Source: Eledone cirrhosa
Taxonomy: Eukaryota
DNA: 64,000 bases
NCBI GenBank assembly: GCA_964016885.1
Contig: OZ024743.1
Location: forward strand, 211,358,001 to 211,422,000
Reading direction: 5' to 3'
The stretch's first letter is position 1, and each line of letters begins with the position of its first letter. The position numbers and the translations under genes are program-made. Shown here in pieces: positions 1-64,000 of this stretch. The notes beneath the pieces are model-generated. The model did not search any database. It was not told the origin of the DNA and saw nothing but the letters and a program-made list of their open reading frames with translations.

Positions 1-99
1 ATATTACAGACATGTTGTTAGAATGTCTGAGGAAAGAATCACTAGAGAGCTGTTCCAGGGAGAGCCACTAATTCACCGAATTGAGAGATCATAGCTCTG

Positions 100-3000
100 A
101 TATTACAGACATGAGGTTAGAATGTCTGAGGAAAGAATCACTAGAGAGCTGTTCCAGGTAGAGCCGCTAATTCACTGAATTGAGAGATCAAAGCTCTGAT
201 ATTACAGACATGTGGTTAGGATGTCTCAGAAAATAATCACTAGAGAGTTGTTAAAGGTAGAGCCACTAATTCACTGAAGTACGAGATCACAGCTCTGATA
301 TTACAGACATGTGGTTAGAATGTCTGAGGAAAGAATCACTAGAGAGCTGTTCCAGGTAGAGCCACTAATTCACTGAATTGAGAGATCACAGCTCTGATAC
401 TACAGACATGTGGTTAGAATGACTGAGGAAAGAATCACTAGAGAGCTGTTCCAGGTAGAGCCACTAATTCACTGAATTGAGAGATTATAGCTCTGATACT
501 ACAGACATGTGGTTAGAATGTCTGAGGAAAGAATCACTAGAGAGCTGTTCCAGGTAGAGCCACTAATTCACTGAATTGAGAGATCACAGCTCTGATACTA
601 CAGACATGTGGTTAGAATGTCTGATGAAAGAATCGCTGGGGAGTTGTTCCAGGTAGAGCCACTAATTCACTGAATTGAGAGATCACAGCTCTGATATTAC
701 AGACATGTGGTTAGAATGTCTGAGGAAAGAGTCACTGGAGAGCTGTTCCAGGTAGAGCCACTAATTCACTGAATTGAGAGATCACAGCTCTGATATTACA
801 GACATGAGGTTAGAATGTCTGATGAAAGAATCACTAGAGAGCTGTTCCAGGTAGAGCCACTAATTCACTGAATAAAGAGATAATAGCTCTGATATTACAG
901 ACATGTGGTTAGAATGTCTGAGGAAAGAATCACTGGAGAGCTGTTCCAGGTAGAGCCACTAATTCACTGAATTGAGAGATCACAGCTCTGATATTACAGA
1001 CATGTGGTTAGAATGTCTCAGAAAAGAATCACTAGAGAGCTGTTCAAGGTAGAGCCACTAATTCACTGAATTGAGAGATCACAGCCCTGATATTACAGAC
1101 ATGTGGTTAGAATGTCCCAGGAAAGAATCACTGGAGAGCTGTTCCGGGTAGAGCCACTAATTCACTGAATTGAGAGATCACAGCTCTGATATTACAGACA
1201 TGTGGTTAGAATGTCTGAGGAAAGAATCACTAGAGAGCTGTTCCAGGTAGAGCCGCTAATTCACTGAATTTAGAGATCACAGCTTTGATATTACAGACAT
1301 GTGGTTAGAATGTCTCAGAAAAGAATCACTAGAGAGCTGTTCAAGGTAGAGCCACTAATTCACTGAATTGAGAGATCACAGCTCTGATATTACAGACATG
1401 AGGTTAGAATGTCTGATGAAAGAATCACTAGAGAGCTGTTCCAGGTAGAGCCACTAATTCACTGAATAAAGAGATAATAGCTCTGATATTACAGACATGT
1501 GGTTAGAATGTCTGAGGAAAGAATCACTGGAGAGCTGTTCCAGGTAGAGCCACTAATTCACTGAATTGAGAGATCACAGCTCTGATATTACAGACATGTG
1601 GTTAGAATGTCTCAGAAAAGAATCACTAGAGAGCTGTTCAAGGTAGAGCCACTAATTCACTGAATTGAGAGATCACAGCCCTGATATTACAGACATGTGG
1701 TTAGAATGTCCCAGGAAAGAATCACTGGAGAGCTGTTCCGGGTAGAGCCACTAATTCACTGAATTGAGAGATCACAGCTCTGATATTACAGACATGTGGT
1801 TAGAATGTCTGAGGAAAGAATCACTAGAGAGCTGTTCCAGGTAGAGCCGCTAATTCACTGAATTTAGAGATCACAGCTTTGATATTACAGACATGTGGTT
1901 AGAATGTCTCAGAAAAGAATCACTAGAGAGCTGTTCAAGGTAGAGCCACTAATTCACTGAATTGAGAGATCACAGCTCTGATATTACAGACATGTGGTTA
2001 GAATGTCTGAGGAAAGAATCACTGGAGAGCTGTTCCGGGTAGAGCCACTAATTCACTGAATTGAGAGATCACAGCTCTGATATTACAGACATGTGGTTAG
2101 AATGTCTGAGGAAAGAATCACTAGAGAGCTGTTCCAGGTAGAGCCGCTAATTCACTGAATTGAGAGATCATAGCTCTGATAATACAGACATGCGGTTAGA
2201 ATGTCTGAGGAAAGAATCACTAGAGAGCTGTTCCAGGTAGAGCCACTAATTCACTGAATTGAGAGATCATAGCTCTGATATTACAGACATGTGGTTAGAA
2301 TGTCTGAGGAAAGAATCACTAGAGAGCTGTTCCAGGTAGAGCCGCTAATTCACTGAATTGAGAGATCACAGCTCTGATATTACAGACATGTGGTTAGAAT
2401 GTCTCAGAAAAGAATCACTAGAGAGCTGTTCAAGGTAGAGTCACTAATTCACTGAATTGAGAGATCACAGCTCTGATATTACAGACATGTGGTCAGAATG
2501 TCTGAGGAAAGAATCACTGGAGAGCTGTTCCGGGTAGAGCCACGAATTTACCAAATTGAGAGATCATAGCGCTGATACTACAGACATGTGGTTAGAATGT
2601 CTGAGGAAAGAATAACTAGAGAGCTGTTCCAGGTAGAGCCACTAATTCACTGAATTGAGAGATCATAGCTCTCATACTATAGACATGTGGTTAGAATGTC
2701 TCAGGAAAGAATCACTGGAGAGCTGTTCCAGGTAGAGCCACTAATTCACTGAATTGAGAGATCATAGCTCTGATACTACAGACATGTGGTTAGAATGTCT
2801 GAGGAAAGAATCACTGGAGAGCTGTTCCAGGTAGAGCCACTAATTCACCGAATTGAGAGATCATAGCTCTGATATTACAGACATGAGGTTAGAATGTCTG
2901 AGGAAAGAATCACTAGAGAGCTGTTCCAGGTAGAGCCGCTAATTCACTGAATTGAGAGATCAAAGCTCTGATATTACAGACATGTGGTTAGGATGTCTCA

Positions 3001-9000: not shown

Positions 9001-12000
9001 ACAGCTCTGATACTACAGACATGTGGTTAGAATGTCTGATGAAAGAATCGCTGGGGAGTTGTTCCAGGTAGAGCCACTAATTCACTGAATTGAGAGATCA
9101 CAGCTCTGATATTACAGACATGTGGTTAGAATGTCTGAGGAAAGAGTCACTGGAGAGCTGTTCCAGGTAGAGCCACTAATTCACTGAATTGAGAGATCAC
9201 AGCTCTGATATTACAGACATGAGGTTAGAATGTCTGATGAAAGAATCACTAGAGAGCTGTTCCAGGTAGAGCCACTAATTCACTGAATTGAGAGATAATA
9301 GCTCTGATATTACAGACATGTGGTTAGAATGTCTGAGGAAAGAATCACTAGAGAGCTGTTCCAGGTAGACCCACTAATTCACTGAATTGAGAGATCACAG
9401 CTCTGATATTACAGACCTGTGCTTAGAATGTCTGAGGAAAGAATCACTAGAGAGCTGTTCCAGGTAGAGCCACTAATTCACTGAATTGAGAGATCACAGC
9501 TCTGATATTACAGACATGTGGTTAGAATGTCTGAGTAAAGAATCACTGGAGCGCTGTTCCAGGTAGAACCACTAATTCACTGAATTGAGAGATAATAGCT
9601 CTGATATTACAGACATGTGGTTAGAATGTCTGAGGAAAGAATCACTAGAGAGCTGTTCCAGGTAGAGCCACTAATTCACTGAATTTAGAGATCACAGCTC
9701 TGATATTACAGACATGTGGTTAGAATGTCTGAGGAAAGAATCACTGGAGAGCTGTTCCAGGTAGAGCCACGAATTCACTGAATTGAGAGATCATAGCTCT
9801 GATATTACAGACATGTGGTTACAATGTCTCAGGAAAGAATCACTAAGGAGCTGTTCCAGGTAGATCCACTAATTCACTGAATTGAGAGATCACAGCTCTG
9901 ATATTACAGACATGTGGTTAGAATGTCTGAGGAAAGAATCACTGGAGAGCTGTTCCAGGTAGAGCCACTAATTCACTGAATAGAGAGATCACAGCTCTGA
10001 TATTACAGACATGTGGTTACAATGTCTGAGGAAAGAATCACTGGAGAGCTGTTCCAGGTAGAGCCACTAATTCACTGAATTGAGAGATCATATCTCTGAT
10101 ATTACAGACATGGGGTTAGAATGTCTCAGGAAAGAATCACTAGAGAGCTGTTCCAGGTAGAGCCACTAATTCACTGAATTGAGAGATCACAGCTCTGATA
10201 TTACAGACATGTGGTTAGAATGTCTGAGGAAAGAATCACTGGAGAGCTGTTCCAGGTAGAGCCACTAATTCACTGAATTGAGAGATCACAGCTCTGATAT
10301 TACAGACATGGGGTTAGAATGTCTGAGGAAAGAAACACTAGAGAGTTGTTCCAGGTAGAGCCGCTAATTCACTGAATTGAGAGATCATAGCTCTGATACT
10401 ACAGACATGCGGTTAGAATGTCTGAGGAAAGAATCACTAGAGAGCTGTTCCAGGTAGAGCCGCTAATTCACTGAATTGAGAGATCATAGCACTGATATTA
10501 CAGACATGTGGTTAGAATGTCTCAGGAAAGAATCACTGGAGAGCTGTTCCAGGTAGAGCCACTAATTCACCGAATTGAGAGATCATGGCTCAGATACTAC
10601 AGACGTGTGGTTAGAATGTCTGAGGAAAGAATCACTAGAGAGCTGTTCCAGGTAGAGCCACTAATTCACTGAATTGAGAGATCATAGCTCTGATATTACA
10701 GACATGTGGTTAGAATGTCTGAGGAAAGAATCACTGGAGAGCTGTTCCAGGTAGAGCCACTAATTCACTGAATAGAGAGATCACAGCTCTGATATTACAG
10801 ACATGTGGTTACAATGTCTGAGGAAAGAATCACTGGAGAGCTGTTCCAGGTAGAGCCACTAATTCACTGAATTGAGAGATCATATCTCTGATATTACAGA
10901 CATGGGGTTAGAATGTCTCAGGAAAGAATCACTAGAGAGCTGTTCCAGGTAGAGCCACTAATTCACTGAATTGAGAGATCACAGCTCTGATATTACAGAC
11001 ATGTGGTTAGAATGTCTGAGGAAAGAATCACTGGAGAGCTGTTCCAGGTAGAGCCACTAATTCACTGAATTGAGAGATCATAGCTCTGATACTACAGACA
11101 TGTGGTTAGAATGTCTGAGGAAAGAATCACTAGAGAGCTGTTCCAGGTAGAGCCGCTAATTCACTGAATTGAGAGATCATAGCTCTGATATTACAGACAT
11201 GAGGTTAGAATGTCTGAGGAAAGAATCACTAGAGAGCTGTTCCAGGTAGAGCCGCTAATTCACTGAATTGAGAGATCAAAGCTCTGATATTACAGACATG
11301 TGGTTAGGATGTCTCAGAAAATAATCACTAGAGAGTTGTTAAAGGTAGAGCCACTAATTCACTGAAGTACGAGATCACAGCTCTGATATTACAGACATGT
11401 GGTTAGAATGTCTGAGGAAAGAATCACTAGAGAGCTGTTCCAGGTAGAGCCACTAATTCACTGAATTGAGAGATCACAGCTCTGATACTACAGACATGTG
11501 GTTAGAATGACTGAGGAAAGAATCACTAGAGAGCTGTTCCAGGTAGAGCCACTAATTCACTGAATTGAGAGATTATAGCTCTGATACTACAGACATGTGG
11601 TTAGAATGTCTGAGGAAAGAATCACTAGAGAGCTGTTCCAGGTAGAGCCACTAATTCACTGAATTGAGAGATCACAGCTCTGATACTACAGACATGTGGT
11701 TAGAATGTCTGATGAAAGAATCGCTGGGGAGTTGTTCCAGGTAGAGCCACTAATTCACTGAATTGAGAGATCACAGCTCTGATATTACAGACATGTGGTT
11801 AGAATGTCTGAGGAAAGAGTCACTGGAGAGCTGTTCCAGGTAGAGCCACTAATTCACTGAATTGAGAGATCACAGCTCTGATATTACAGACATGAGGTTA
11901 GAATGTCTGATGAAAGAATCACTAGAGAGCTGTTCCAGGTAGAGCCACTAATTTACTGAATTGAGAGATAATAGCTCTGATATTACAGACATGTGGTTAG

Positions 12001-13400
12001 AATGTCTGAGGAAAGAATCACTAGAGAGCTGTTCCAGGTAGACCCACTAATTCACTGAATTGAGAGATCACAGCTCTGATATTACAGACCTGTGCTTAGA
12101 ATGTCTGAGTAAAGAATCACTAGAGAGCTGTTCCAGGTAGAGCCACTAATTCACTGAATTGAGAGATCACAGCTCTGATATTACAGACATGTGGTTAGAA
12201 TGTCTGAGTAAAGAATCACTGGAGCGCTGTTCCAGGTAGAGCCACTAATTCACTGAATTGAGAGATAATAGCTCTGATATTACAGACATGTGGTTAGAAT
12301 GTCTGAGGAAAGAATCACTAGAGAGCTGTTCCAGGTAGAGCCACTAATTCACTGAATTTAGAGATCACAGCTCTGATATTACAGACATGTGGTTAGAATG
12401 TCTGAGGAAAGAATCACTGGAGAGCTGTTCCAGGTAGAGCCACTAATTCACTGAATTGAGAGATCACAGCTCTGATATTACAGACATGGGGTTAGAATGT
12501 CTGAGGAAAGAAACACTAGAGAGTTGTTCCAGGTAGAGCCGCTAATTCACTGAATTGAGAGATCATAGCTCTGATACTACAGACATGCGGTTAGAATGTC
12601 TGAGGAAAGAATCACTAGAGAGCTGTTCCAGGTAGAGCCGCTAATTCACTGAATTGAGAGATCATAGCTCTGATATTACAGACATGTGGTTAGAATGTCT
12701 CAGGAAAGAATCACTGGAGAGCTGTTCCAGGTAGAGCCACTAATTCACCGAATTGAGAGATCATGGCTCAGATACTACAGACGTGTGGTTAGAATGTCTT
12801 AGGAAAGAATTACTAGAGAGCTGTTCCAGGTAGAGCCACTAATTCACTGAATTGAGAGATCATAGCTCTGATATTACAGACATGTCGTTAGAATGTCTGA
12901 GGAAAGAATCACTAGAGAGCTGTTCCAGGTAGAGCCACTAATTCACTGAATTGAGAGATCACAGCTCTGATATTACAGACATGCGGTTAGAATGTCTGAG
13001 GAAAGAATTACTAGAGAACTGTTCCAGTTGGAGCCACTAATTCACTGAATTGAGAGATCATAGCTTTGATACTACAGACATGTGGTTAGAATGTCTGAGG
13101 AAAGAATAACTAGAGAGCTGTTCCAGGTAGAGCCACAAATTCACTGAATTGAGAGATCACAGCTCTGATATTACAGACATGTGGTTAGAATGTCTGAGGA
13201 AAGAGTCACTAGAGAGGTGTTCCAGGCAGAGCCACGAATTTACCGAATTGAGAGATCATAGCGCTGATACTACAGACATGTGGTTAGAATGTCTGAGGAA
13301 AGAATAACTAGAGAGCTGTTCCAGGTAGAGCCACTAATTCACTGAATTGAGAGATCATAGCTCTCATACTATAGACATGTGGTTAGAATGTCTCAGGAAA
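100..13400. repeat. Higher-order repeat domain 1: variable units of 26-31 monomers containing internal 11-mer duplications
   Basis: The marker monomer TTAGGATGTCTCAGAAAATAATC...GTTGTTAAAGG occurs at 219, 2991, 5565, 8634 and 11307, giving spacings of 28, 26, 31 and 27 x 99. ATCGCTGGGG occurs at about 3406 and 4495 (11 x 99). Boundaries are approximate. Confidence 0.85.
793..1980. repeat. Local tandem duplication of 6 monomers (594-bp period)
   Basis: The rare variant AATAAAGAGATAATAGC occurs at 871 and 1465 (594 apart). The variants ATGTCCCAGG, TTCCGGGT, CAGCCCTG and CAGCTTTG repeat at the same offset. Boundaries are approximate. Confidence 0.85.
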
Positions 13401-38700: not shown

Positions 38701-41700
38701 AGCTCTGATAATACAGACATGTGGTTAGTATGTCTCAGTAAAGAATCACTGGAGAGCTGTTCCAGGTAGAGCCGTTAATTCACTGAATTGAGAGATCATA
38801 GCTCTGATACTACAGACATGTGGTTAGAATGTCTAAGGAAAGAATCACTAGAGAGCTGTTCCAGGTAGAGCCGCTAATTCACTGAATTGAGAGATCATAG
38901 CTCTGATACTACAGACATGTGGTTAGAATGTCTGAGGAAAGAAACACTAGAGAGCTGTTCCAGGTATGAGCCACTAATTAAATGAATTGAGAGATCACAG
39001 CTCTGATACTACAGACATGGGGTTAGAATTCCTGAGGAAAGAATAACTAGAGAGCTGTTCCAGGTAGAGCCACTAATTCACCAAATTGAGAGATCATAGC
39101 TCTGATACTACAGACATGTGGTTAGAATGTCTGAGGAACGAATCACTAGAGAGCTGTTCCAGGTAGTGCCACTAATTCACTGAATTGAGAGATCATAGCT
39201 CTGATACTACAGACATGTGGTTAGAATGTCTGAGGAAAGAATCACTAGAGAGCTGTTCCAGGTAGAGCCACTAATTCACTGAATTGAGAGATCACAGCTC
39301 TGATACTACAGACATGTGGTTAGAATGTCTGAGGAAAGAATCACTAGAGAGCTCTTCCAGGTAGAGCCACTAATTCACTGAATTGTGAGATCATAGCTCT
39401 GATACTACAGATATGTGGTTAGAATGTCTGAGGAAAGAATCACTGGAGAGCTGTTCCAGGTAGAGCCACTAATTCACTGAATTGAGAGATCACAGCTCTG
39501 ATATTACAGACATGTGGTTAGAATGTCTGAGGAAAGAATCACTAGAGAGCTGTTCCAGGTAGAGCCACTAATTCACTGAATTGAGAGATCATAGCTCTGA
39601 TACTACAGACATGTGGTTAGAATGTCTGAGGAAAGAATCACTAGAGAGCTGTTCCAGGTAGAGCCACTAATTCACTGAATTAAGAGATCATAGCTCTGAT
39701 ATTACAGACATGTGGTTAGAATGTCTGAGGAAAGAATCACTAGAGAGCTGTTCCAGGTAGAGCCACTAATTCACTGAATTGAGAGATCACAGCTCTGATA
39801 TTACAGACATGTGGTTAGAATGTCTGAGGAAAGAATCACTAGAGAGCTGTTCCAGGTAGTGCCACTAATTCACTGAATTGAGAGATAATAGCTCTGATAT
39901 TACAGACATGTGGTTAGAATGTCTGAGGAACGAATCACTGGAGAGCTGTTCCAGGTAGAGCCACTAATTCACTGAATTGAGAGATCATAGCTCTGATATT
40001 ACAGACATGGGGTTAGAACGTCTCAGGAAAGAATCACTAGAGAGCTGTTCCAGGTAGAGCCACTAATTCACTGAATTGAGAGATCACAGCTCTGATACTA
40101 TAGATATATGGTTAGAATGTCTGAGGAAAGAATCACTAGAGAGCTGTTCCAGGTAGAGCCACTAATTCACTGAATTGAGAGATCACAATTCTGATATTAC
40201 AGACATGGGGTTAGAATGTCTGAGGAAAGAATCACTGGAGAGATGTTCCAGGTAGAGCCACTAATTCACTGAATTGAGAGATCACAGCTCTGATATTACA
40301 GACATGTGCTTAGAATGTCTAAGGAAAGAATCACTGGAGAGCTGTTCCAGGTAGAGCCACTAATTCACTCAGTTGAGAGATCACAGCTCTGATATTACAG
40401 ACATGTGGTTAGAATGTCTGAGGAAAGAATCACTAGAGAGCTGTTCCAGGTAGAGCCACTAATTCACTGAATTGAGAGATCATAGCTCTAATACTATAGA
40501 CATGAGGTTAGAATGTCTGAGGAAAGAATCACTAGAGAGCTGTTCCAGGTAGAGCCACTAATTCAATGAATTCAGAGATCACAACTCTGATATTACAGAC
40601 ATGTGGTTAGAATGTCTGAGGAGAGAGTCACTAGAGAGCTGTTCCAGGTAGAGCCAATAATTCACTGAATTGAGAGACCACAGCTCTGATATTACAGACA
40701 TGTGGTTAGAATGTCTGAGGAAAGAATCACTGGAGAGCTGTTCCAGGTAGAGCCACTAATTCACTGAATTGAGAGATCATAGCTCTGATATTACAGACAT
40801 GTGGTTAGAATGTCTGATGAAAGAATCACTGGAGAGCTGTTCCAGGTAGAGCCACTAATTCACTGAATTGAGAGATCACAGCTCTGATATTACAGACATG
40901 TGGTTAGAATGTCTGAGGAAAGAATCACTGGAGAGCTGTTCCAGGTAGAGCCACTAATTCACTGAATTGACAGATCACAACTCAGATATTACAGACATGT
41001 GGTTAGAATGTCTGATTAGAATCACTGGAGAGCTGTTCCAGGTAGAGCCACTAATTCACTGAATTGAGAGATCACAGCTCTGATATTACAGACATGTGGT
41101 TAGAATGTCTGAGGAAAGAATCACTAGAGAGCTGTTCCAGGTAGAGCCACAAATTCACGGAATTGAGAGATCACAGCTCTGATATTACAGACATGTGGTT
41201 AGAATGTCTGAGGTAAGAATCACTGGAGAGCTGTTCCAGGTAGAGCCACTAATTCACTGAATTGAGAGATCACAGCTCTGATATTACAGACATGTGGTTA
41301 GAATGTCTCAGGAAAGAATCACTAGAGACCTGTTCCAGGTAGAGCCACTAATTCACTGAATTGAGAGATCACGGCTCTGATATTACAGACATGTGGTTAG
41401 AATGTCTGAGGAAAGAATCACTAGAGAGCTGTTCCAGGTAGAGCCACTAATTCACTGAATTGAGACATCACAGCTCTGATATTACAGACATGTGGTTAGA
41501 ATGTCTGAGGAAAGTATCACTGGAGAGCTGTTCCAGGTAGAGCCACTAATTCACTCAATTGAGAGATCACAGCTCTGATATTACAGACATGTGGTTAGAA
41601 TGTCTGAGGAAAGAATCACTAGAGAGCTGTTCCAGGTAGAGCCACAAATTCACTGAATTGAGAGATCACAGCTCTGATATTACAGACATGTGGTTAGAAT

Positions 41701-44700: not shown

Positions 44701-47700
44701 CCAGGTATGAGCCACTAATTAAATGAATTGAGAGATCACAGCTCTGATACTACAGACATGGGGTTAGAATTCCTGAGGAAAGAATAACTAGAGAGCTGTT
44801 CCAGGTAGAGCCACTAATTCACCAAATTGAGAGATCATAGCTCTGATACTACAGACATGTGGTTAGAATGTCTGAGGAACGAATCACTAGAGAGCTGTTC
44901 CAGGTAGTGCCACTAATTCACTGAATTGAGAGATCATAGCTCTGATACTACAGACATGTGGTTAGAATGTCTGAGGAAAGAATCACTAGAGAGCTGTTCC
45001 AGGTAGAGCCACTAATTCACTGAATTGAGAGATCACAGCTCTGATACTACAGACATGTGGTTAGAATGTCTGAGGAAAGAATCACTAGAGAGCTCTTCCA
45101 GGTAGAGCCACTAATTCACTGAATTGTGAGATCATAGCTCTGATACTACAGATATGTGGTTAGAATGTCTGAGGAAAGAATCACTGGAGAGCTGTTCCAG
45201 GTAGAGCCACTAATTCACTGAATTGAGAGATCATAGCTCTGATACTACAGACATGTGGTTAGAATGTCTGAGGAAAGAATCACTAGAGAGCTGTTCCAGG
45301 TAGAGCCACTAATTCACTGAATTGAGAGATCATAGCTCTGATACTACAGACATGTGGTTAGAATGTCTGAGGAAAGAATCACTAGAGAGCTGTTCCAGGT
45401 AGAGCCACTAATTCACTGAATTAAGAGATCATAGCTCTGATATTACAGACATGTGGTTAGAATGTCTGAGGAGAGAGTCACTAGAGAGCTGTTCCAGGTA
45501 GAGCCAATAATTCACTGAATTGAGAGACCACAGCTCTGATATTACAGACATGTGGTTAGAATGTCTGAGGAAAGAATCACTGGAGAGCTGTTCCAGGTAG
45601 AGCCACTAATTCACTGAATTGAGAGATCATAGCTCTGATATTACAGACATGTGGTTAGAATGTCTGATGAAAGAATCACTGGAGAGCTGTTCCAGGTAGA
45701 GCCACTAATTCACTGAATTGAGAGATCACAGCTCTGATATTACAGACATGTGGTTAGAATGTCTGAGGAAAGAATCACTAGAGAGCTGTTCCAGGTAGAG
45801 CCACTAATTCACTGAATTGAGAGATCATAGCTCTGATACTACAGACATGTGGTTAGAATGTCTGAGGAAAGAATCACTAGAGAGCTGTTCCAGGTAGAGC
45901 CACTAATTCACTGAATTAAGAGATCATAGCTCTGATATTACAGACATGTGGTTAGAATGTCTGAGGAAAGAATCACTAGAGAGCTGTTCCAGGTAGAGCC
46001 ACTAATTCACTGAATTGAGAGATCACAGCTCTGATATTACAGACATGTGGTTAGAATGTCTGAGGAAAGAATCACTAGAGAGCTGTTCCAGGTAGTGCCA
46101 CTAATTCACTGAATTGAGAGATAATAGCTCTGATATTACAGACATGTGGTTAGAATGTCTGAGGAACGAATCACTGGAGAGCTGTTCCAGGTAGAGCCAC
46201 TAATTCACTGAATTGAGAGATCATAGCTCTGATATTACAGACATGGGGTTAGAACGTCTCAGGAAAGAATCACTAGAGAGCTGTTCCAGGTAGAGCCACT
46301 AATTCACTGAATTGAGAGATCACAGCTCTGATACTATAGATATATGGTTAGAATGTCTGAGGAAAGAATCACTAGAGAGCTGTTCCAGGTAGAGCCACTA
46401 ATTCACTGAATTGAGAGATCACAATTCTGATATTACAGACATGTGGTTAGAATGTCTGAGGAAAGAATCACTGGAGAGATGTTCCAGGTAGAGCCACTAA
46501 TTCACTGAATTGAGAGATCACAGCTCTGATATTACAGACATGTGCTTAGAATGTCTAAGGAAAGAATCACTGGAGAGCTGTTCCAGGTAGAGCCACTAAT
46601 TCACTCAGTTGAGAGATCACAGCTCTGATATTACAGACATGTGGTTAGAATGTCTGAGGAAAGAATCACTAGAGAGCTGTTCCAGGTAGAGCCACTAATT
46701 CACTGAATTGAGAGATCATAGCTCTAATACTATAGACATGAGGTTAGAATGTCTGAGGAAAGAATCACTAGAGAGCTGTTCCAGGTAGAGCCACTAATTC
46801 AATGAATTCAGAGATCACAACTCTGATATTACAGACATGTGGTTAGAATGTCTGAGGAGAGAGTCACTAGAGAGCTGTTCCAGGTAGAGCCAATAATTCA
46901 CTGAATTGAGAGACCACAGCTCTGATATTACAGACATGTGGTTAGAATGTCTGAGGAAAGAATCACTGGAGAGCTGTTCCAGGTAGAGCCACTAATTCAC
47001 TGAATTGAGAGATCATAGCTCTGATATTACAGACATGTGGTTAGAATGTCTGATGAAAGAATCACTGGAGAGCTGTTCCAGGTAGAGCCACTAATTCACT
47101 GAATTGAGAGATCACAGCTCTGATATTACAGACATGTGGTTAGAATGTCTGAGGAAAGAATCACTGGAGAGCTGTTCCAGGTAGAGCCACTAATTCACTG
47201 AATTGACAGATCACAACTCAGATATTACAGACATGTGGTTAGAATGTCTGATTAGAATCACTGGAGAGCTGTTCCAGGTAGAGCCACTAATTCACTGAAT
47301 TGAGAGATCACAGCTCTGATATTACAGACATGTGGTTAGAATGTCTGAGGAAAGAATCACTAGAGAGCTGTTCCAGGTAGAGCCACAAATTCACGGAATT
47401 GAGAGATCACAGCTCTGATATTACAGACATGTGGTTAGAATGTCTGAGGTAAGAATCACTGGAGAGCTGTTCCAGGTAGAGCCACTAATTCACTGAATTG
47501 AGAGATCACAGCTCTGATATTACAGACATGTGGTTAGAATGTCTCAGGAAAGAATCACTAGAGACCTGTTCCAGGTAGAGCCACTAATTCACTGAATTGA
47601 GAGATCACGGCTCTGATATTACAGACATGTGGTTAGAATGTCTGAGGAAAGAATCACTAGAGAGCTGTTCCAGGTAGAGCCACTAATTCACTGAATTGAG

Positions 47701-50700
47701 ACATCACAGCTCTGATATTACAGACATGTGGTTAGAATGTCTGAGGAAAGTATCACTGGAGAGCTGTTCCAGGTAGAGCCACTAATTCACTCAATTGAGA
47801 GATCACAGCTCTGATATTACAGACATGTGGTTAGAATGTCTGAGGAAAGAATCACTAGAGAGCTGTTCCAGGTAGAGCCACAAATTCACTGAATTGAGAG
47901 ATCACAGCTCTGATATTACAGACATGTGGTTAGAATGTCTGAGGAAAGAATCACTGGAGAGCTGTTCCAGGTAGAGCCACTAATTCACTGAATTGAGAGA
48001 TCATAGCTCTGATATTACAGACATGGTGTTAGAATGTCTCAGGAAAGAATCACTAGAGAGCTGTTCCAGGTAGAGCCACTAATTCACTGAATTGAGAGAT
48101 CACAGCTCTGATACTATAGACATGTGGTTAGAATGTCTGAGGAAAGAATCACTAGAGAGCTGTTCCAGGTAGAGCCACTAATTCACTGAATTGAGAGATC
48201 ACAATTCTGATATTACAGACATGTAGTTAGAATGTCTGAGGAAAGAATCACTGGAGAGATGTTCCAGGTAGAGCCACTAATTCACTGAATTGAGAGATCA
48301 CAGCTCTGATATTACAGACATGTGCTTAGAATGTCTAAGGAAAGAATCACTGGAGAGCTGTTCCATGTAGAGCCACTAATTCACTGAATTGAGAGATCAC
48401 AGCTCTGATATTACAGACATGTGGTTAGAATGTCTGAGGAAAGAATCACTGGAGAGCTGTTCCAGGTAGAGCCACTAATTCACTGAATTGACAGATCACA
48501 ACTCAGATATTACAGACATGTGGTTAGAATGTCTGAGGAAAGAATCACTGGAGAGCTGTTCCAGGTAGAGCCACTAATTCACTGAATTGACAGATCACAA
48601 CTCAGATATTACAGACATGTGGTTAGAATGTCTGAGGAAAGAATCACTGGAGAGCTGTTCCAGTTAGAGCCACTAATTCACTGAATTGAGAGATCACAGC
48701 TCTGATATTACAGACATGGGGTTAGAATGTCTCAGGAAAGAATCACTAGAGAGCTGTTCAAGGTAGAGCCACTAATTCACTGAATTGAGAGATCACAGCT
48801 CTGATACTACAGACATGCGGTTAGAATGTCTGAGGAAAGAATCACTAGAGAGCTGTTCCAGGTAGAGCCGCTAATTCACTGAATTGAGAGATCATAGCTC
48901 TGATACTACAGACACGTGGTTAGAATGTCTAAGGAAAGAATCACTAGAGAGCTGTTCCAGGTAGAGCCACTAATTCACTGAATTGAGAGATCACAGCTCT
49001 GATATTACAGACATGTGGTTAGAATGTCTCAGGAAAGAATCACTAGAGACCTGTTCCAGGTAGATCCACTAATTCACTGAATTGAGAGATCACGGCTCTG
49101 ATATTACAGACATGTGGTTAGAATGTCTGAGGAAAGAATCACTAGAGAGCTGTTCCAGGTAGAGCCACTAATTCACTGAATTGAGACATCACAGCTCTGG
49201 TATTACAGACATGTTGTTAGAATGTCTGAGGAAAGAATCACTAGAGAGCTGTTCCAGGTAGAGCCGCTAATTCACTGAATTGACAGTTCACAACTCAGAT
49301 ATTACAGACATGTGGTTAGAATGTCTGAGGAAAGTATCACTGGAGAGCTGTTCCAGGTAGAGCCACTAATTCACTCAATTGAGAGATCACAGCTCTGATA
49401 TTACAGACATGTGGTTAGAATGCCTGAGGAAAGAATCAATAGAGAGCTGTTCCAGGTAGAGCCACTAATTCACTGAATTGAGAGATCATAGCTCTAATAC
49501 TATAGACATGAGGTTAGAATGTCTGAGGAAAGAATCACTAGAGAGCTGTTCCAGGTAGAGCCACTAATTCAATGAATTCAGAGATCACAACTCTGATATT
49601 ACAGACATGTGGTTAGAATGTCTGAGGAGAGAATCACTAGAGAGCTGTTCCAGGTAGAGCCAATAATTCACTGAATTGAGAGATCACAGCTCTGATATTA
49701 CAGACATGTGGTTAGAATGTCTGAGGAAAGAATCACTGGAGAGCTGTTCCAGGTAGAGCCACTAATTCACTGAATTGAGAGATCATAGCTCTGATATTAC
49801 AGACATGTGGTTAGAATGTCTGATGAAAGAATCACTGGAGAGCTGTTCCAGGTAGAGCCACTAATTCACTGAATTGAGAGATCACAGCTCTGATATTAAA
49901 GACATGTGGTTAGAATGTCTGAGGAAAGACTCACTGGAGAGCTGTTCCAGGTAGAGCCACTAATTCACTGAATTGACAGATCACAACTCAGATGTTGCAG
50001 ACATGGGGTTAGAATGTCTGAGGAAAGTATCACTGGAGAGCTGTTCCAGGTAGAGCCACTAATTCACTCAATTGAGAGATCACAGCTCTGATATTACAGA
50101 CATGTGGTTAGAATGTCTGAGGAAATAATCACTGGAGAGCTGTTCCAGGTAGAGCCACTAATTCACTGAATTGACAGATCACAACTCAGATATTACAGAC
50201 ATGTGGTTAGAATGTCTGAGGAAAGAATCACTGGAGAGCTGTTCCAGTTAGAGCCACTAATTCACTGAATTGAGAGATCACAGCTCTGATATTACAGACA
50301 TGGGGTTAGAATGTCTCAGGAAAGAATCACTAGAGAGCTGTTCAAGGTAGAGCCACTAATTCACTGAATTGAGAGATCACAGCTCTGATACTACAGACAT
50401 GCGGTTAGAATGTCTGAGGAAAGAATCACTAGAGAGCTGTTCCAGGTAGAGCCGCTAATTCACTGAATTGAGAGATCATAGCTCTGATACTACAGACACG
50501 TGGTTAGAATGTCTAAGGAAAGAATCACTAGAGAGCTGTTCCAGGTAGAGCCACTAATTCACTGAATTGAGAGATCACAGCTCTGATATTACAGACATGT
50601 GGTTAGAATGTCTCAGGAAAGAATCACTAGAGACCTGTTCCAGGTAGAGCCACTAATTCACTGAATTGAGAGATCACGGCTCTGATATTACAGACATGTG

Positions 50701-53700
50701 GTTAGAATGTCTGAGGAAAGAATCACTAGAGAGCTGTTCCAGGTAGAGCCACTAATTCACTGAATTGAGACATCACAGCTCTGGTATTACAGACATGTGG
50801 TTAGAATGTCTGAGGAAAGAATCACTAGAGAGCTGTTCCAGGTAGAGCCGCTAATTCACTGAATTGAGAGATCATAGCTCTGATATTACAGACATGTGGT
50901 TAGAATGTCTGAGGAAAGAATCACTGGAGAGCTGTTCCAGGTAGAGCCACTAATTCACTGAATTGACACATCACAACTCAGATATTACAGACATGTGGTT
51001 AGAATGTCTGAGGAAAGTATCACTGGAGAGCTGTTCCAGGTAGAGCCACTAATTCACTCAATTGAGAGATCACAGCTCTGATATTACAGACATGTGGTTA
51101 GAATGTCTGAGGAAAGAATCACTAGAGAGCTGTTCCAGGTAGAGCCACTAATTCACTCAATTGAGAGATCACAGCTCTGATATTACAGACATGTGGTTAG
51201 AATGTCTGAGGAAAGAATCACTAGAGACCTGTTCCAGGTAGAGCCACTAATTCAATGAATTCAGAGATCACAACTCTGATATTACAGACATGTGGTTAGA
51301 ATGTCTGAGGAGAGAATCACTAGAGAGCTGTTCCAGGTAGAGCCAATAATTCACTGAATTGAGAGATCACAGCTCTGATATTACAGATATGTGGTTAGAA
51401 TGTCTGAGGAAAGAATCACTGGAGAGCTGTTCCAGGTAGAGCCACTAATTCACTGAATTGAGAGATCATAGTTCTGATATTACAGACATGTGGTTAGAAT
51501 GTCTGATGAAAGAATCACTGGAGAGCTGTTCCAGGTAGAGCCACTAATTCACTGAATTGAGAGATCACAGCTCTGATATTACAGACATGTGGTTAGAATG
51601 TCTGAGGAAAGACTTACTGGAGAGCTGTTCCAGGTAGAGCCACTAATTCACTGAATTGACAGATCACAACTCAGATATTGCAGACATGGGGTTAGAATGT
51701 CTGAGGAAAGTATCACTGGAGAGCTGTTCCAGGTAGAGCCACTAATTCACTCAATTGAGAGATCACAGCTCTGATATTACAGACATGTGGTTAGAATGTC
51801 TGAGGTAAGAATCACTGGAGAGCTGTTCCAGGTAGAGCCACTAATTCACTGAATTGAGAGATCACAGCTCTGATATTACAGACATGTGGTTAGAATGTCT
51901 CAGGAAAGAATCACTAGAGACCTGTTCCAGGTAGAGCCACTAATTCACTGAATTGAGAGATCACGGCTCTGATATTACAGACATGTGGTTAGAATGTCTG
52001 AGGAAAGAATCACTAGAGAGCTGTTCCAGGTAGAGCCACTAATTCACTGAATTGAGACATCACAGCTCTGATATTACAGACATGTGGTTAGAATGTCTGA
52101 GGAAAGTATCACTGGAGAGCTGTTCCAGGTAGAGCCACTAATTCACTGAATTGAGAGATCACAGCTCTGATATTACAGACATGTGGTTAGAATGTCTGAG
52201 GAAAGAATCACTAGAGAGCTGTTCCAGGTAGAGCCACAAATTCACTGAATTGAGAGATCACAGCTCTGATATTACAGACATGTGGTTAGAATGTCTCAGG
52301 TAAGAATCACTGGAGAGCTGTTCCAGGTAGAGCCACTAATTCACTGAATTGAGAGATCACAGCTCTGATATTACAGACATGTGGTTAGAATGTCTGAGGA
52401 AAGAATCACTAGAGAGCTGTTCCAGGTAGAGCCGCTAATTCACTGAATTGAGAGATCATAGCTCTGATACTACAGACATGTGGTTAGAATGTCTCAGGAA
52501 AGAATCACTGGAGAGCTGTTCCAGGTAGAGCCACTAATTCACTGAATTGAGAGATCATAGCTCTGATACTACAGAAATGTGGTTAGAACGTCTCAGGAAA
52601 GAATCACTGGAGAGCTGTTCCAGGTAGAGCCACTAATTCACTGAATTGAGAGATCATAGCTCTGATATTACAGACATGGGGTTAGAATGTCTCAGGAAAG
52701 AATCACTAGAGAGCTGTTCCAGGTAGAGCCACTAATTCACTGAATTGAGAGATCAAAGCTCTGATATTACAGACATGTGGTTAGAATGTCTGAGGAAAGA
52801 ATCACTGGAGAGCTGTTCCAGGTAGAGCCACTAATTCACTGAATTGAGAGATCGCAGCTCTGATATTACAGACATGTGGTTAGAATGTCTGAGGAAAGAA
52901 TCACTGGAGAGCTGTTCCAGGTAGAGCCACTAATTCACTGAATTGAGAGATCATAGCTCTGATATTACAGACATGTGGTTAGAATGTCTGAGGAAAGAAT
53001 CACTAGAGAGCTGTTCCAGGTAGAGCCACTAATTCACTGAATTGAGAGATCACAATTCTGATATTACAGACATGTGGTTAGAATGTCTGAGGAAAGAATC
53101 ACTGGAGAGATATTCCAGGTAGAGCCACTAATTCACTGAATTGAGAGATCACAGCTCTGATACTACAGACATGTGCTTAGAATGTCTAAGGAAAGAATCA
53201 CTGGAGAGCTGTTCCATGTAGAGCCACTAATTCACTGAATTGAGAGATCACAGCTCTGATATTACAGACATGTGGTTAGAATGTCTCAGGAAAGAATCAC
53301 TGGAGAGCTGTTCCAGGTAGAGCCACTAATTCACTGAATTGAGAGATCACAGCTCGGATATTACAGACATGTGGTTAGAATGTCTGAGGAAAGAATCACT
53401 GGAGAGCTGTTCCAAGTAGAGCCACTAATTCACTGAATTGAGAGATCACAACTCAGATATTACAGACATGTGGTTAGAATGTCTGAGGAAAGAATCACTA
53501 GAGAGCTGTTCCAGGTAGAGCTACTAATTCATTGAATTGAGAGATCACAGCTCTGATACTACAGACATGGGGTTAGAATTCCTGAGGAAAGTATAACTAG
53601 AGAGCTGTTCCAGGTAGAGCCACTAATTCACCAAATTGAGAGATCTTAGCTCTGATACTACAGACATGTGGTTAGAATGTCTGAGGAACGAATCACTAGA

Positions 53701-56450
53701 GAGCTGTTCCAGGTAGTGCCACTAATTCACTGAATTGAGAGATCATAGCTCTGATACTACAGACATGTGGTTAGAATGTCTCAGGAAAGAATCACTAGAG
53801 AGCTGTTCCAGGTAGAGCCACTAATTCACTGAATTGAGAGTTCACAGCTCTGATACTACAGACATGTGGTTAGAATGTCTGGGGAAAGAATCACTAGAGA
53901 GCTGTTCCAGGTAGAGCCACTAATTCACTGAATTGAGAGATCATAGCTCTGATACTACAGACATGTGGTTAGAATGTCTGAGGAAAGAATCACTAGAGAG
54001 CTGTTCCAGGTAGAGCCACTAATTCACTGAATTGAGAGATCACAGCTCTGATATTACAGACATGTGGCTAGAATGTCTGAGGAAAGAATCCTCGGAGAGC
54101 TGTTCCATGTAGAGCCACTAATTCACTGAATTGAGAGATCACAGCTCTGATATTACAGATATGTTGTTAGAATGTCTCAGGAAAGAATCACTGGAGATCT
54201 GTTCCAGGTAGAGCCACTAATTCACTGAATTGAGAGATCACAGCTCTGATATTACAGACATGTGGTTAGAATGTCTCAGGAAAGAATCACTAGAGAGCTG
54301 TTTCATGTAGAGCCACTAATTCACTGAATTGAGAGATCACAGCTCTGATATTATAGACATGTGGTTAGAATGTCTGAGGAAAGAATCACTAGCGAGCTGT
54401 TCCAGATAGAGCCGCTAATTCACTGAATTGAGAGATCACAGCTCTGATACTACAGATATGTGGTTAGAATGTCTGAGGAAAGAATCACTGGAGAGCTGTT
54501 CCAGGTAGAGCCACTAATTCACTGAATTGAGAGATCACAGCTCTGATACTACAGACATGTGGTTAGAATGTCTGAGGAAAGAATCGCTGGGGAGCTTTTC
54601 CAGGTAGAGCCACTAATTCACTGAATTGAGAGATCACAGCTCTGATATTACAGACATGTGGTTAGAATGTCTGATGAAAGAAACACTAGAGAGCTGTTCC
54701 AGGTAGAGCCACTAATTCACTGAATTGAGAGATAATAGCTCTGATATTACAGACATGTGGTTAGAATGTCTGAGGAAAGAATCACTAGAGAGCTGTTCCA
54801 GCTAGAGCCACTAATTCACTGAATTGAGAGATCACAGCTCTGATATTACAGACCTGTGGTTAGAATGTCTGAGGAAAGAATCACTAGAGAGCTGTTCCAG
54901 GTAGAGCCACTAATTCACTGAATTGAGAGATCACAGCTCTGATATTACAGACATGTGGTTAGAATGTCTGAGTAAAGAATCACTGGAGAGCTGTTCCAGG
55001 TAGAGCCACTAATTCACTGAATTGAGAGATAATAGCTCTGATATTACAGACATGTGGTTAGAATGTCTGAGGAAAGAATCACTAGAGGGCTGTTCCAGGT
55101 AGAGCCACTAATTCACTGAATTTAGAGATCACAGCTCTGATATTACAGACATGTTGTTAGAATGTCTCAGGAAAGTATCACTAGAGAGCTGTTCCAGGTA
55201 GAGCCACTAATTCACTGAATTGAGAGATCACAGCTCTGATAATACAGACATGTGGTTAGTATGTCTCAGTAAAGAATCACTGGAGAGCTGTTCCAGGTAG
55301 AGCCGTTAATTCACTGAATTGAGAGATCATAGCTCTGATACTACAGACATGTGGTTAGAATGTCTAAGGAAAGAATCACTAGAGAGCTGTTCCAGGTAGA
55401 GCCGCTAATTCACTGAATTGAGAGATCATAGCTCTGATACTACAGACATGTGGTTAGAATGTCTGAGGAAAGAAACACTAGAGAGCTGTTCCAGGTATGA
55501 GCCACTAATTAAATGAATTGAGAGATCACAGCTCTGATACTACAGACATGGGGTTAGAATTCCTGAGGAAAGAATAACTAGAGAGCTGTTCCAGGTAGAG
55601 CCACTAATTCACCAAATTGAGAGATCATAGCTCTGATACTACAGACATGTGGTTAGAATGTCTGAGGAACGAATCACTAGAGAGCTGTTCCAGGTAGTGC
55701 CACTAATTCACTGAATTGAGAGATCATAGCTCTGATACTACAGACATGTGGTTAGAATGTCTGAGGAAAGAATCACTAGAGAGCTGTTCCAGGTAGAGCC
55801 ACTAATTCACTGAATTGAGAGATCACAGCTCTGATACTACAGACATGTGGTTAGAATGTCTGAGGAAAGAATCACTAGAGAGCTCTTCCAGGTAGAGCCA
55901 CTAATTCACTGAATTGTGAGATCATAGCTCTGATACTACAGATATGTGGTTAGAATGTCTGAGGAAAGAATCACTGGAGAGCTGTTCCAGGTAGAGCCAC
56001 TAATTCACTGAATTGAGAGATCACAGCTCTGATATTACAGACATGTGGTTAGAATGTCTGAGGAAAGAATCACTAGAGAGCTGTTCCAGGTAGAGCCACT
56101 AATTCACTGAATTGAGAGATCATAGCTCTGATACTACAGACATGTGGTTAGAATGTCTGAGGAAAGAATCACTAGAGAGCTGTTCCAGGTAGAGCCACTA
56201 ATTCACTGAATTAAGAGATCATAGCTCTGATATTACAGACATGTGGTTAGAATGTCTGAGGAAAGAATCACTAGAGAGCTGTTCCAGGTAGAGCCACTAA
56301 TTCACTGAATTGAGAGATCACAGCTCTGATATTACAGACATGTGGTTAGAATGTCTGAGGAAAGAATCACTAGAGAGCTGTTCCAGGTAGTGCCACTAAT
56401 TCACTGAATTGAGAGATAATAGCTCTGATATTACAGACATGTGGTTAGAA
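29750..56450. repeat. Large segmental higher-order structure ABC-AC-ABC (units of about 10.2 kb, 6.2 kb and 10.3 kb)
   Basis: A 2-bp deletion marker (CTGATTAGAATC) occurs at about 30819, 41015 and 47251. A 1-bp insertion marker (GGTATGAGCCACTAATTAAATG) occurs at 38967, 44708 and 55498. AATCCTCGG occurs at about 37560, 43301 and 54091. Boundaries are approximate. Confidence 0.85.
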
Positions 56451-59400
56451 TGTCTGAGGAACGAATCACTAGAGAGCTGTTCCAGGTAGAGCCACTAATT
56501 CACTGAATTGAGAGATCACAGCTCTGATATTACAGACATGTGGTTAGAATGTCTCAGGAAAGAATCACTAGAGAGCTGTTTCAGGTAGAGCCACTAATTC
56601 ACTGAATTGAGAGATCACAGCTCTGATATTACAGACATGGGGTTAGAATTCCTGAGGAAAGAATAACTAGAGAGCTGTTCCAGGTAGAGCCACTAATTCA
56701 CCAAATTGAGAGATCATAGCTCTGATACTACAGACATGTGGTTAGAATGTCTGAGGAACGAATCACTAGAGAGCTGTTCCAGGTAGTGCCACTAATTCAC
56801 TGAAGTGAGAGATCATCGCTCTGATACTACAGACATGTGGTTAGAATGTCTGAGGAAAGAATCACTAGAGAGCTGTTCCAGGTAGAGCCACTAATTCACT
56901 GAATTGAGAGATCACAGCTCTGATACTACAGACATGTGGTTAGAATGTCTGAGGAAAGAATCACTAGAGAGTTGTTCCAGGTAGAGCCACTAATTCACTG
57001 AATTGAGAGATCATAGCTCTGATACTACAGATATGTGGTTAGAATGTCTGAGGAAAGAATCACTAGAGAGCTGTTCCAGGTAGAGCCACTAATTCACTGA
57101 ATTGAGAGATCACAGCTCTGATATTACAGGCATGTGGCTAGAATGTCTGAGGAAAGAATCACTGGAGAGCTGTTCCAGGTAGAGCCACTAATTCACTGAA
57201 TTGAGAGATCACAGCTCTGATATTACAGACATGTGGTTAGAATGTCTGAGGAAAGAATCACTAGAGAGCTGTTCCAGGTAGAGCCACTAATTCACTGAAT
57301 TGAGAGATCATAGCTCTGATACTACAGACATGTGGTTAGAATGTCTGAGGAAAGAATCACTAGAGAGCTGTTCCAGGTAGAGCCACTAATTCACTGAATT
57401 AAGAGATCATAGCTCTGATATTACAGACATGTGGTTAGAATGTCTGAGGAAAGAATCACTGGAGAGCTGTTCCAGGTAGAGCCACCTAATTCACTGAATT
57501 GAGAGATCACAGCTCTGATATTACAGACATGTGGTTAGAATGTCTCAGGAAAGAATCACTAGAGAGCTGTTTCATGTAGAGCCACTAATTCACTGAATTG
57601 AGAGATCACAGCTCTGATACTACAGACATGTGGTTAGAATGTCTGAGGAAAGAATCACTAGAGAGCTGTTCCAGGTAGAGCCACTAATTCACTGAATTGA
57701 GAGATCATAGCTCTGATATTACAGACATGTGGTTAGAATGTCTGAGGAAAGAATCACTAGAGAGCTGTTCCAGCTAGAGCCACTAATTCACTGAATTGAG
57801 AGATCACAGCTCTGATATTACAGACCTGTGGTTAGAATGTCTGAGGAAAGAATCACTAGAGAGCTGTTCCAGGTAGAGCCGTTAATTCACTGAATTGAGA
57901 GATCATAGCTCTGATACTACAGACATGTGGTTAGAATGTCTGAGGAAAGAATCACTAGAGAGCTCTTCCAGGTAGAGCCACTAATTCACTGAATTGTGAG
58001 ATCATAGCTCTGATACTACAGATATGTGGTTAGAATGTCTGAGGAAAGAATCACTGGAGAGCTGTTCCAGGTAGAGCCACTAATTCACTGAATTGAGAGA
58101 TCACAGCTCTGATATTACAGACATGTGGTTAGAATGTCTGAGGAAAGAATCACTAGAGAGCTGTTCCAGGTAGAGCCACTAATTCACTGAATTGAGAGAT
58201 CATAGCTCTGATACTACAGACATGTGGTTAGAATGTCTGAGGAAAGAATCACTAGAGAGCTGTTCCAGGTAGAGCCACTAATTCACTGAATTAAGAGATC
58301 ATAGCTCTGATATTACAGACATGTGGTTAGAATGTCTGAGGAAAGAATCACTAGAGAGCTGTTCCAGGTAGAGCCACTAATTCACTGAATTGAGAGATCA
58401 CAGCTCTGATATTACAGACATGTGGTTAGAATGTCTGAGGAAAGAATCACTAGAGAGCTGTTCCAGGTAGTGCCACTAATTCACTGAATTGAGAGATAAT
58501 AGCTCTGATATTACAGACATGTGGTTAGAATGTCTGAGGAACGAATCACTAGAGAGCTGTTCCAGGTAGAGCCACTAATTCACTGAATTGAGAGATCACA
58601 GCTCTGATATTACAGACATGTGGTTAGAATGTCTCAGGAAAGAATCACTAGAGAGCTGTTTCAGGTAGAGCCACTAATTCACTGAATTGAGAGATCACAG
58701 CTCTGATATTACAGACATGGGGTTAGAATTCCTGAGGAAAGAATAACTAGAGAGCTGTTCCAGGTAGAGCCACTAATTCACCAAATTGAGAGATCATAGC
58801 TCTGATACTACAGACATGTGGTTAGAATGTCTGAGGAACGAATCACTAGAGAGCTGTTCCAGGTAGTGCCACTAATTCACTGAAGTGAGAGATCATCGCT
58901 CTGATACTACAGACATGTGGTTAGAATGTCTGAGGAAAGAATCACTAGAGAGCTGTTCCAGGTAGAGCCACTAATTCACTGAATTGAGAGATCACAGCTC
59001 TGATACTACAGACATGTGGTTAGAATGTCTGAGGAAAGAATCACTAGAGAGTTGTTCCAGGTAGAGCCACTAATTCACTGAATTGAGAGATCATAGCTCT
59101 GATACTACAGATATGTGGTTAGAATGTCTGAGGAAAGAATCACTAGAGAGCTGTTCCAGGTAGAGCCACTAATTCACTGAATTGAGAGATCACAGCTCTG
59201 ATATTACAGGCATGTGGCTAGAATGTCTGAGGAAAGAATCACTGGAGAGCTGTTCCAGGTAGAGCCACTAATTCACTGAATTGAGAGATCACAGCTCTGA
59301 TATTACAGACATGTGGTTAGAATGTCTGAGGAAAGAATCACTAGAGAGCTGTTCCAGGTAGAGCCACTAATTCACTGAATTGAGAGATCATAGCTCTGAT

Positions 59401-62400: not shown

Positions 62401-62700
62401 GAGGAACGAATCACTAGAGAGCTGTTCCAGGTAGTGCCACTAATTCACTGAATTGAGAGATCATAGCTCTGATACTACAGACATGTGGTTAGAATGTCTG
62501 AGGAAAGAATCACTAGAGAGCTGTTCCAGGTAGAGCCACTAATTCACTGAATTGAGAGATCACAGCTCTGATACTACAGACATGTGGTTAGAATGTCTGA
62601 GGAAAGAATCACTAGAGAGCTGTTCCAGGTAGAGCCACTAATTCACTGAATTGAGAGATCATAGCTCTGATACTACAGATATGTGGTTAGAATGTCTGAG
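55800..62700. repeat. Higher-order repeat domain of 21-22 monomers (2080/2180-bp period)
   Basis: The insertion marker GCCACCTAAT occurs at 57481, 59561 and 61741. TGAAGTGAGAGATCATCGCT occurs at 56801, 58881 and 61061. AGCTCTTCCA occurs at 55881 and 57961. Confidence 0.85.
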
Positions 62701-64000
62701 GAAAGAATCACTAGAGAGCTGTTCCAGGTAGAGCCACTAATTCACTGAATTGAGAGATCACAGCTCTGATATTACAGGCATGTGGCTAGAATGTCTGAGG
62801 AAAGAATCACTGGAGAGCTGTTCCAGGTAGAGCCACTAATTCACTGAATTGAGAGATAATAGCTCTGATATTACAGACATGTGGTTAGAATGTCTGAGGA
62901 AAGAATCACTAGAGAGCTGTTCCAGGTAGAGCCACTAATTCACTGAATTTAGAGATCACAGCTCTGATATTACAGACATGTTGTTAGAATGTCTCAGGAA
63001 AGAATCACTAGAGAGCTGTTCCAGGTAGAGCCACTAATTCACTGAATTGAGAGATCACAGCTCTGATACTACAGACATGTGGTTAGAATGTCTGAGGAAA
63101 GAATCGCTGGGGAGCTGTTCCAGGTAGAGCCACTAATTCACTGAATTGAGAGATCACAGCTCTGATATTACAGACATGTGGTTAGAATGTCTGATGAAAG
63201 AAACACTAGAGAGCTGTTCCAGGTAGAGCCACTAATTCACTGAATTGAGAGATAATAGCTCTGATATTACAGACATGTGGTTAGAATGTCTCAGGAAAGA
63301 ATCACTAGAGAGCTGTTTCATGTAGAGCCACTAATTCACTGAATTGAGAGATCACAGCTCTGATACTACAGACATGTGGTTAGAATGTCTGAGGAAAGAA
63401 TCACTAGAGAGCTGTTCCAGGTAGAGCCACTAATTCACTGAATTGAGAGATCATAGCTCTGATATTACAGACATGTGGTTAGAATGTCTGAGGAAAGAAT
63501 CACTAGAGAGCTGTTCCAGCTAGAGCCACTAATTCACTGAATTGAGAGATCACAGCTCTGATATTACAGACCTGTGGTTAGAATGTCTGAGGAAAGAATC
63601 ACTAGAGAGCTGTTCCAGGTAGAGCCGTTAATTCACTGAATTGAGAGATCATAGCTCTGATACTACAGACATGTGGTTAGAATGTCTGAGGAAAGAATCA
63701 CTAGAGAGCTGTTCCAGGTATGAGCCACTAATTCACTGAATTGAGAGATCACAGCTCTGATACTACAGACATGGGGTTAGAATTCCTGAGGAAAGAATAA
63801 CTAGAGAGCTGTTCCAGGTAGAGCCACTAATTCACTGAATTGAGATATCACAGCTCTGATACTACAGACATGTGGTTAGAATGTCTGAGGAAAGAATCAC
63901 TAGAGAGCTGTTCCAGGTAGAGCCACTAATTCACTGAATTGAGAGATCATAGCTCTGATACTACAGATATGTGGTTAGAATGTCTGAGGAAAGAATCACT

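Follow-up and report, generated by a model that had tools for sequence, protein, structure and literature searches.

A 99-bp satellite made from a LINE coding segment, with units that have moved between dead copies of the parent element

The birth of satellites and their arrival at new loci have long been open questions, and intermediate stages are rarely preserved. The closest described systems involve several kinds of transposable element. Satellites of Lathyrus sativus linked to Ogre LTR retrotransposons form short arrays in dispersed retrotransposons and occasional long arrays in satellite-rich regions (PMC7004042). LINE sequence underlies the chicken HinfI satellite (CR1), hamster PROsat and seal Pvc20 (L1 ORF2), and the cetacean common satellite (L1 3′ end), as reviewed in PMC9659126 and PMC6947457, in whose main text the term RTE has 0 occurrences. 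CficCl-61-40 of Chenopodium stems from a ~40-bp piece of a CACTA tnp2 domain, which its authors read as repeated new generation (PMC7320549), and Rsp-like repeats of Drosophila simulans spread into 1.688 clusters, for which interlocus conversion or circle re-integration was proposed (PMC7403614). On the side of the LINEs, RTE elements are described with a microsatellite-like 3′ tail and target-site duplications of 7-15 bp (PMC6007223), and Rex3 with signature GATC repeats and a stop codon 3 nt before the first GAA (PMC6274825).

The DNA analysed here is a window of 64,000 nt, C4:211,358,001-211,422,000 in a 3.0-Gb assembly. An earlier note on this DNA had described the window as an array of a 99-bp monomer. 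TRF bore this out, reporting a single array from 1 to 64000 with a period of 99, 646.4 copies and 94% matches, and 630 of 642 anchor-to-anchor intervals measured exactly 99 bp (100 bp in 6, 97 bp in 3 and 199 bp in 3). The copy number of at least 646 proved to be a floor: the whole array occupies C4:211,175,840-211,522,964, which is ~347 kb or ~3,500 units if continuous, and 9/9 probes of its interior consisted of array sequence. The features of the window are as follows.

1..64000, + strand: 99-bp satellite array, interior of the ~347-kb array (TRF and interval count).
342..440, + strand: single unit, phased as the parent LINE segment is, with the head-to-tail join at 341/342 and 2 bp of microhomology (join determined by eye in natural copies).
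374..376, + strand: TGA stop, presumably from CpG decay; 59% of 27 single LINE copies retain C here (CGA, Arg).
395..397, + strand: second TGA stop, likewise probably CpG decay; C retained in 46% of 27 single copies.
10496..10672, + strand: open stretch of 58 aa, the longest in the LINE frame, containing the sole stop-free unit of 630.
29745..40038, + strand: 104-unit block, repeated 16.5 kb downstream with <0.1% divergence.
46177..56560, + strand: partner copy of the 104-unit block, end approximate.

Read in frame +2, the unit gives the peptide with two stops that the earlier note had stated, TGA at codon 8 in 577/630 and at codon 15 in 570/630 window units; a third frequent stop, TAG at codon 13 in 189/630, had been overlooked. 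A Pfam search with the unit peptide gave no significant match. Aligned with intact LINE ORFs, a typical unit (X at stops) scored 101 without gaps, with 19/33 residues identical, and the stop-free unit (window 10550) scored 94, also gapless. In 1,000 shuffles the highest scores reached 50 and 56, which 69 and 62 of 117 proteins beat with the typical and the open unit respectively, and the remaining five frames of the unit scored 33-49. The unit maps to residues ~955-989 of ~1,050-aa endonuclease+RT ORFs and lies immediately behind the RT domain on its C-terminal side, at a distance of 60-68 residues from the ORF end in the best matches. Single-copy segments of the host are 75-85% identical to window units. 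The 99-bp unit is therefore an internal coding segment of 33 codons from the C-terminal end of a host LINE, and the note's proposal of a gapless piece of an RTE-type LINE from behind the RT domain is supported, both by this match and by the presence of the parent family in the host.

The multiple-of-three unit length and its retention in nearly all intervals could be taken to mean that the array is kept in frame as a repeat protein or read-through peptide. We consider this refuted, given at least one stop in 629/630 units and the short open stretch listed above. Variant alleles at codon positions 1/2/3 number 43/46/46, a flat distribution that shows no coding constraint. The two main TGA stops are probably decayed CGA codons, because so many single LINE copies keep the C.

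The parent family is abundant and old, with thousands of dead copies of which most have one copy of the segment. At least 3,841 candidate parent tails were found in the host; the uninterrupted LINE-end sequence had 3,270 exact matches, and single-copy segments are mutually 85.8-85.9% alike (351 pairs). Among 40 fetched copies, picked by tail or RT likeness, 33 contain the segment, 3 of them with adjacent units, and none is intact; no intact master was among the 20 RT-selected copies, the longest of which is ~2.4 kb and broken. Upstream, the host fossils translate into an RT domain (RVT_1, E 2.7e-18 and 1.7e-17), and a Pfam search with the endonuclease-side piece was without match. The closest intact proteins, of ~950-1,060 aa and 50-59% identity, combine PF14529/PF03372 with PF00078, and the named close matches are mostly from teleosts (50-53% identity). 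Reverse transcriptase and an apurinic-type endonuclease in one ORF are a feature of RTE-clade LINEs. By a permissive pattern, 44/52 complete 3′ ends have a GAA-type tail. A search of the same 52 ends for target-site duplications found a shared word of at least 10 bp in 2/52 and of at least 8 bp in 6/52, a length that controls often reach. Element structure and unlabelled homologues, as opposed to a labelled phylogeny, suggest that the parent is an RTE-type LINE. At L091:868-1662 lies a fragment of another LINE, with a PHD-finger match inside the C-terminal region.

Small arrays of the unit occur within these fossils. The dispersed-type 99-bp join has 1,088 exact matches in the genome and, at one match per locus, marks at least 65 dispersed loci. 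We inspected 29 loci with the 99-bp join, 9 chosen by likeness to the window and 20 from among the 24 that come first along the genome. At 26/29, at least 40 bp of LINE extends beyond the unit, so that the array sits inside a LINE fossil; 5′ ends are varied and flanks unrelated, and some of the flanking repeats may resemble octopus SINEs. The arrays continue into the ORF end, the stop codon, 6 nt before the first GAA, and the (GAA)n tail. The Rex3/Expander likeness seen by the earlier note thus holds for an RTE-type LINE origin and fails for Rex3 proper, which we rejected: the tail is (GAA)n only, with no GATC repeats, and the stop is 6 nt and not 3 nt upstream (compare PMC6274825).

The smallest array has 1.5 units and most reach no more than 50; a further one, on C2, exceeds 10 kb. 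The genome shows a full series, from the single LINE segment through the dimer and arrays of 5-50 units in fossils to the ~3,500-unit block. A second, overlapping tandem unit of 123 bp (41 codons) comes from the same LINE end, with 1,836 exact join matches (e.g. L049, L096-L115), and L003 and L004 hold mixed 123/99 arrays. Read by eye, microhomology at the joins is 2 bp (99-bp join) and 1 bp (123-bp join); both recurrent joins preserve the frame, for which the chance is 1 in 9. L065 and L072 are 5′-truncated copies of 1.5 units. Within a locus, the first and last units are 83-98% alike, exceeding 90% in 20/28 comparable loci. At L041 (C20:11.725 Mb) a 28-bp unit of the LINE tail region is present in ~30 copies within one fossil.

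Such varied amplification, with locus-private changes in the units of L073 and L075, would fit repeated independent duplication in separate LINE copies, by replication slippage or an RT template jump at a fixed site, and a report of recurrent monomer generation from a transposase fragment offers a precedent (PMC7320549). We nevertheless judge it improbable: microhomology at the joins is only 1-2 bp, the truncated dimers are not makeable from their own locus, and rare variants are shared across loci. Units of L003/4/5/7/8/9, on different chromosomes, are 97-100% alike, these six having been picked by likeness to the window. A single origin of the join is likely, given 1,088 exact dispersed joins with so little microhomology.

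We then compared the placement of join loci with that of ordinary LINE ends. One-match-per-locus patterns gave 65 join loci and 97 control ends, from which 8 and 4 unplaced rows were excluded. On the six largest chromosomes lay 5/57 join loci versus 37/93 control LINE ends (Fisher p 3e-5). On the smaller chromosomes, 35/52 join loci versus 23/56 controls lay no more than 1.5 Mb from a neighbour (p 0.007), and four intervals of ~19 Mb, chosen after the data had been seen, held 32/57 join loci versus 2/93 controls; this clustering is inflated, because homogenised loci match exact patterns more readily. The regions where join loci cluster are rich in tandem repeats in any case, which weakens the argument from placement. 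Tandem repeats make up 19.8% of the surroundings of LINE copies on small versus 5.4% on large chromosomes, and tandem repeats of period at least 10 fill 59.5% of 200 kb at C27:18.7-18.9 Mb (L156-L175). In this 200-kb stretch, taken from the C27 cluster without selection, a single fossil included the segment; it had an array of 12 units, and one case is too small a basis for a census.

A fresh set of loci was chosen by join and tail start only (12/13 loci on C15 and 8 clustered loci on C27), and units were compared over columns 12-83, which the search pattern leaves unconstrained. On C27, 28/28 locus pairs had units at least 95% alike (mean 98.0%), compared with 0/351 pairs of single-copy segments. 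Likeness fell to 80.4% in their LINE tails (17 pairs) and to 71% in the parts upstream (5 pairs), and the flanks had only short common stretches, 70-83% alike. C15 units were 91.0% alike, with 6/66 pairs at or above 95%, and C15 tails 80.6%. Because C27 units are 98% alike and the LINE tails beside them 80%, units must have moved between old fossils. Unit transfer between loci is thus evident, and it refutes repeated duplication as sole cause; new colonisation of fossils that held a single copy would be a further step, which we infer. As the tail is not replaced in most pairs, transfer at the DNA level seems preferable to 3′-end-primed LINE copying. L062 and L063, 0.63 Mb apart, have in common a unit with a 10-bp deletion (98.4% alike; tails 82%), and L003 and L004 are 98% alike over array and tail, with 82% in the 5′ parts and unrelated flanks.

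Transfer is not general across loci. Among the 20 join-selected loci, far pairs were 86.6% alike with 0/172 at or above 95%, like single copies, and near pairs reached 95% in 2/18. Sharing of rare variants among near loci did not reach significance when tested by permutation (p 0.12), and in a weak 99-column tree the dispersed units were scattered among single copies and formed no single clade. In favour of transfer, no tail or upstream column set a master subfamily apart (best Bonferroni p 0.55).

The divergence of far arrays, as great as that of single copies, fits a different history, in which an old master LINE with in-frame 99-bp (and 123-bp) duplications retrotransposed, its dimers expanded in tandem-prone regions and neighbours were homogenised, with single-copy fossils left uncolonised. 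Both joins being in frame and the truncated 1.5-unit copies agree with such a master, and the join may be old, since contigs of public run X5, which has another organism label, include the LINE and cross the join, with the window type scarce. Yet the join loci cluster strongly by chromosome and locally, unlike the parent, no subfamily column is found in tails or upstream parts, and the two end units of a locus are mostly more than 90% alike. Transfer between loci is, moreover, still required for 98% units beside 80% tails. We consider the master LINE a serious contender, albeit an unlikely one.

The big array differs from the small ones in its edges. On the left it begins mid-unit after AT-rich unique DNA, and on the right it stops mid-unit against a 29-bp satellite; a LINE flank was looked for at both edges and none was found. 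An RTE copy at the array edge, named by the earlier note as ideal support, is accordingly absent here, and the link to the LINE comes from the dispersed small arrays. A truncated LINE 3′ end with an inverted RT piece directly before it lies 4.7 kb to the left (C4:211,170,912-211,171,370); its order is wrong for the array's own tail, and it was rejected as such. The pair resembles a 5′-inverted insertion. The first and last part-units do not add up to one unit, the signature of circle integration that was sought at the array ends.

Internally, the big array was built by nested block duplications of 11-167 units, a range that led us to reject a fixed higher-order repeat. Some blocks are exact (26 and 21 units, 0 divergence), and on this account the assembled length may be off. 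That the long array as a whole is an assembly artefact is nevertheless very improbable: 197 units are distinct among the 646 of the window, mean divergence is 5.0%, and window-type units recur in several public runs. The same 5.0% was obtained between both ends of the big array. Contigs of X1 (possibly the source) contain the window type prominently, and those of X4, X7 and X9 contain units matching over 79-97 bases with 0-1 differences; summed contig depth in these runs gives no copy number. At the window-specific positions 348-351, the RAD reads of X17 and X18 list no letter other than that of the window; we do not take them as support, because most counted reads at 368 and 372 show the parent letter. 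None of the public-run matches listed was an RNA run containing the unit.

The window-type join had 2,410 exact genome matches, all on the + strand, compared with ~2,260 expected from the big array alone, so that this subtype is probably confined to one locus. Fourteen sampled big-array units form one clade (support 100/97), placed weakly in the 99-column tree beside small arrays L002 and L069 (91/88).

The array sits among other satellites within a multi-megabase complex. A 55-bp satellite runs on C4 from at least 209.0 to 210.9 Mb (7/7 probes over 1.9 Mb), a 45-bp satellite occupies 211.05-211.08 Mb and the 29-bp satellite 211.523-211.606 Mb, and a CpG-rich satellite of ~196 bp extends from 211.65 to at least 212.2 Mb (L027-L029, L116, L117). 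The last has 16,497 exact matches on both strands, with a first block at C1:279.7 Mb; as centromeric satellites typically bind the centromeric histone and occur on many chromosomes, this multi-chromosome repeat is a better candidate centromeric repeat than the single-locus window type, and a pericentromeric location of the big array is a guess. Rfam gave 0 matches on the probes neighbouring the array. An LTR-retrotransposon-like element lies 15 kb left of the array (L050:637-4477; C4:211.157-211.160 Mb); its gag-like frame (306 aa) and its pol-like frame (847 aa) are open, and by its motifs we take it to be gypsy-like. Chromosome sizes are strongly bimodal, with four of 379-443 Mb and many of 22-136 Mb, perhaps as a result of fusions.

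Collectively, these data lead us to favour, as probable though short of secure, a non-coding LINE-derived satellite whose join arose once and spread by homology-guided DNA copying into fossils, one seed of which grew into the 347-kb block. The unit is the internal LINE segment to which it aligns, and the same join is found in many dispersed fossils with unrelated flanks. Units of separate loci, which are far more alike than their LINE tails, would have been exchanged through ectopic gene conversion, a switch of template or circles that re-integrate into a homologous fossil, and would have expanded locally inside fossils after the spread of the join. The big array grew by the nested duplications described above and may have lost its LINE flanks or been seeded without them. 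Its edges, free of LINE sequence, and its weak tie to any particular small array speak against this explanation. More tentatively, and as something we hold slightly less probable than its opposite, the unit may behave as an intragenomic homing element, with tens of thousands of dead parent copies as landing pads, which spreads region by region, favours the variant nearest the family centre (0.6% from the family majority versus 5.0% for single copies) and seeds satellite blocks.

A literature search that took in few subscription papers returned no RTE-derived satellite, no fossil-to-fossil spread and no cephalopod satellitome, and the main text of an octopus repeat annotation gives RTE families and describes no such satellite (PMC13282606). 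Satellites derived from transposable elements, including from LINE ORFs, are already known; an RTE source and spread from fossil to fossil appear, as far as this search goes, to be new here. The value of the genome lies in a visible series from fossil to satellite, together with evidence of units moving between dead copies. Every small array comes with a built-in clock, namely the contrast between its young units and the old LINE tail, so that direct tests of ectopic conversion, circle re-integration and retrotransposition are possible at many loci. A host function for the array is neither shown nor needed.

Set against the described systems, the parent LINE resembles Rex3 (PMC6274825) in that its stop codon stands only a few bases ahead of the GAA repeats; its named close protein matches are mostly from teleosts. 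The satellite resembles CficCl-61-40 in that the monomer is a short coding piece of a transposable element and arrays are attached to parent elements; that source is a DNA transposon, whereas here the join is common to many loci and units pass between them (PMC7320549). As in Lathyrus, short arrays lie in retrotransposon copies and some expand to great length, but the source here is a non-LTR LINE, its coding sequence supplies the unit, dead copies exchange units, and most LINE copies have no array (adjacent units in 3/33 segment-bearing copies), in contrast to the Ogre system as described in PMC7004042. The regional spread into older resident repeats recalls Rsp-like, with the difference that microhomology is invoked there and the landing pads here are dead parent LINEs with ~90% homology over the unit (PMC7403614). 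Like the LINE-ORF satellites of vertebrates, finally, it is made from LINE coding or 3′ sequence; unlike those reviewed in PMC9659126 and PMC6947457, its whole unit is LINE ORF, and the intermediates persist in the same genome.
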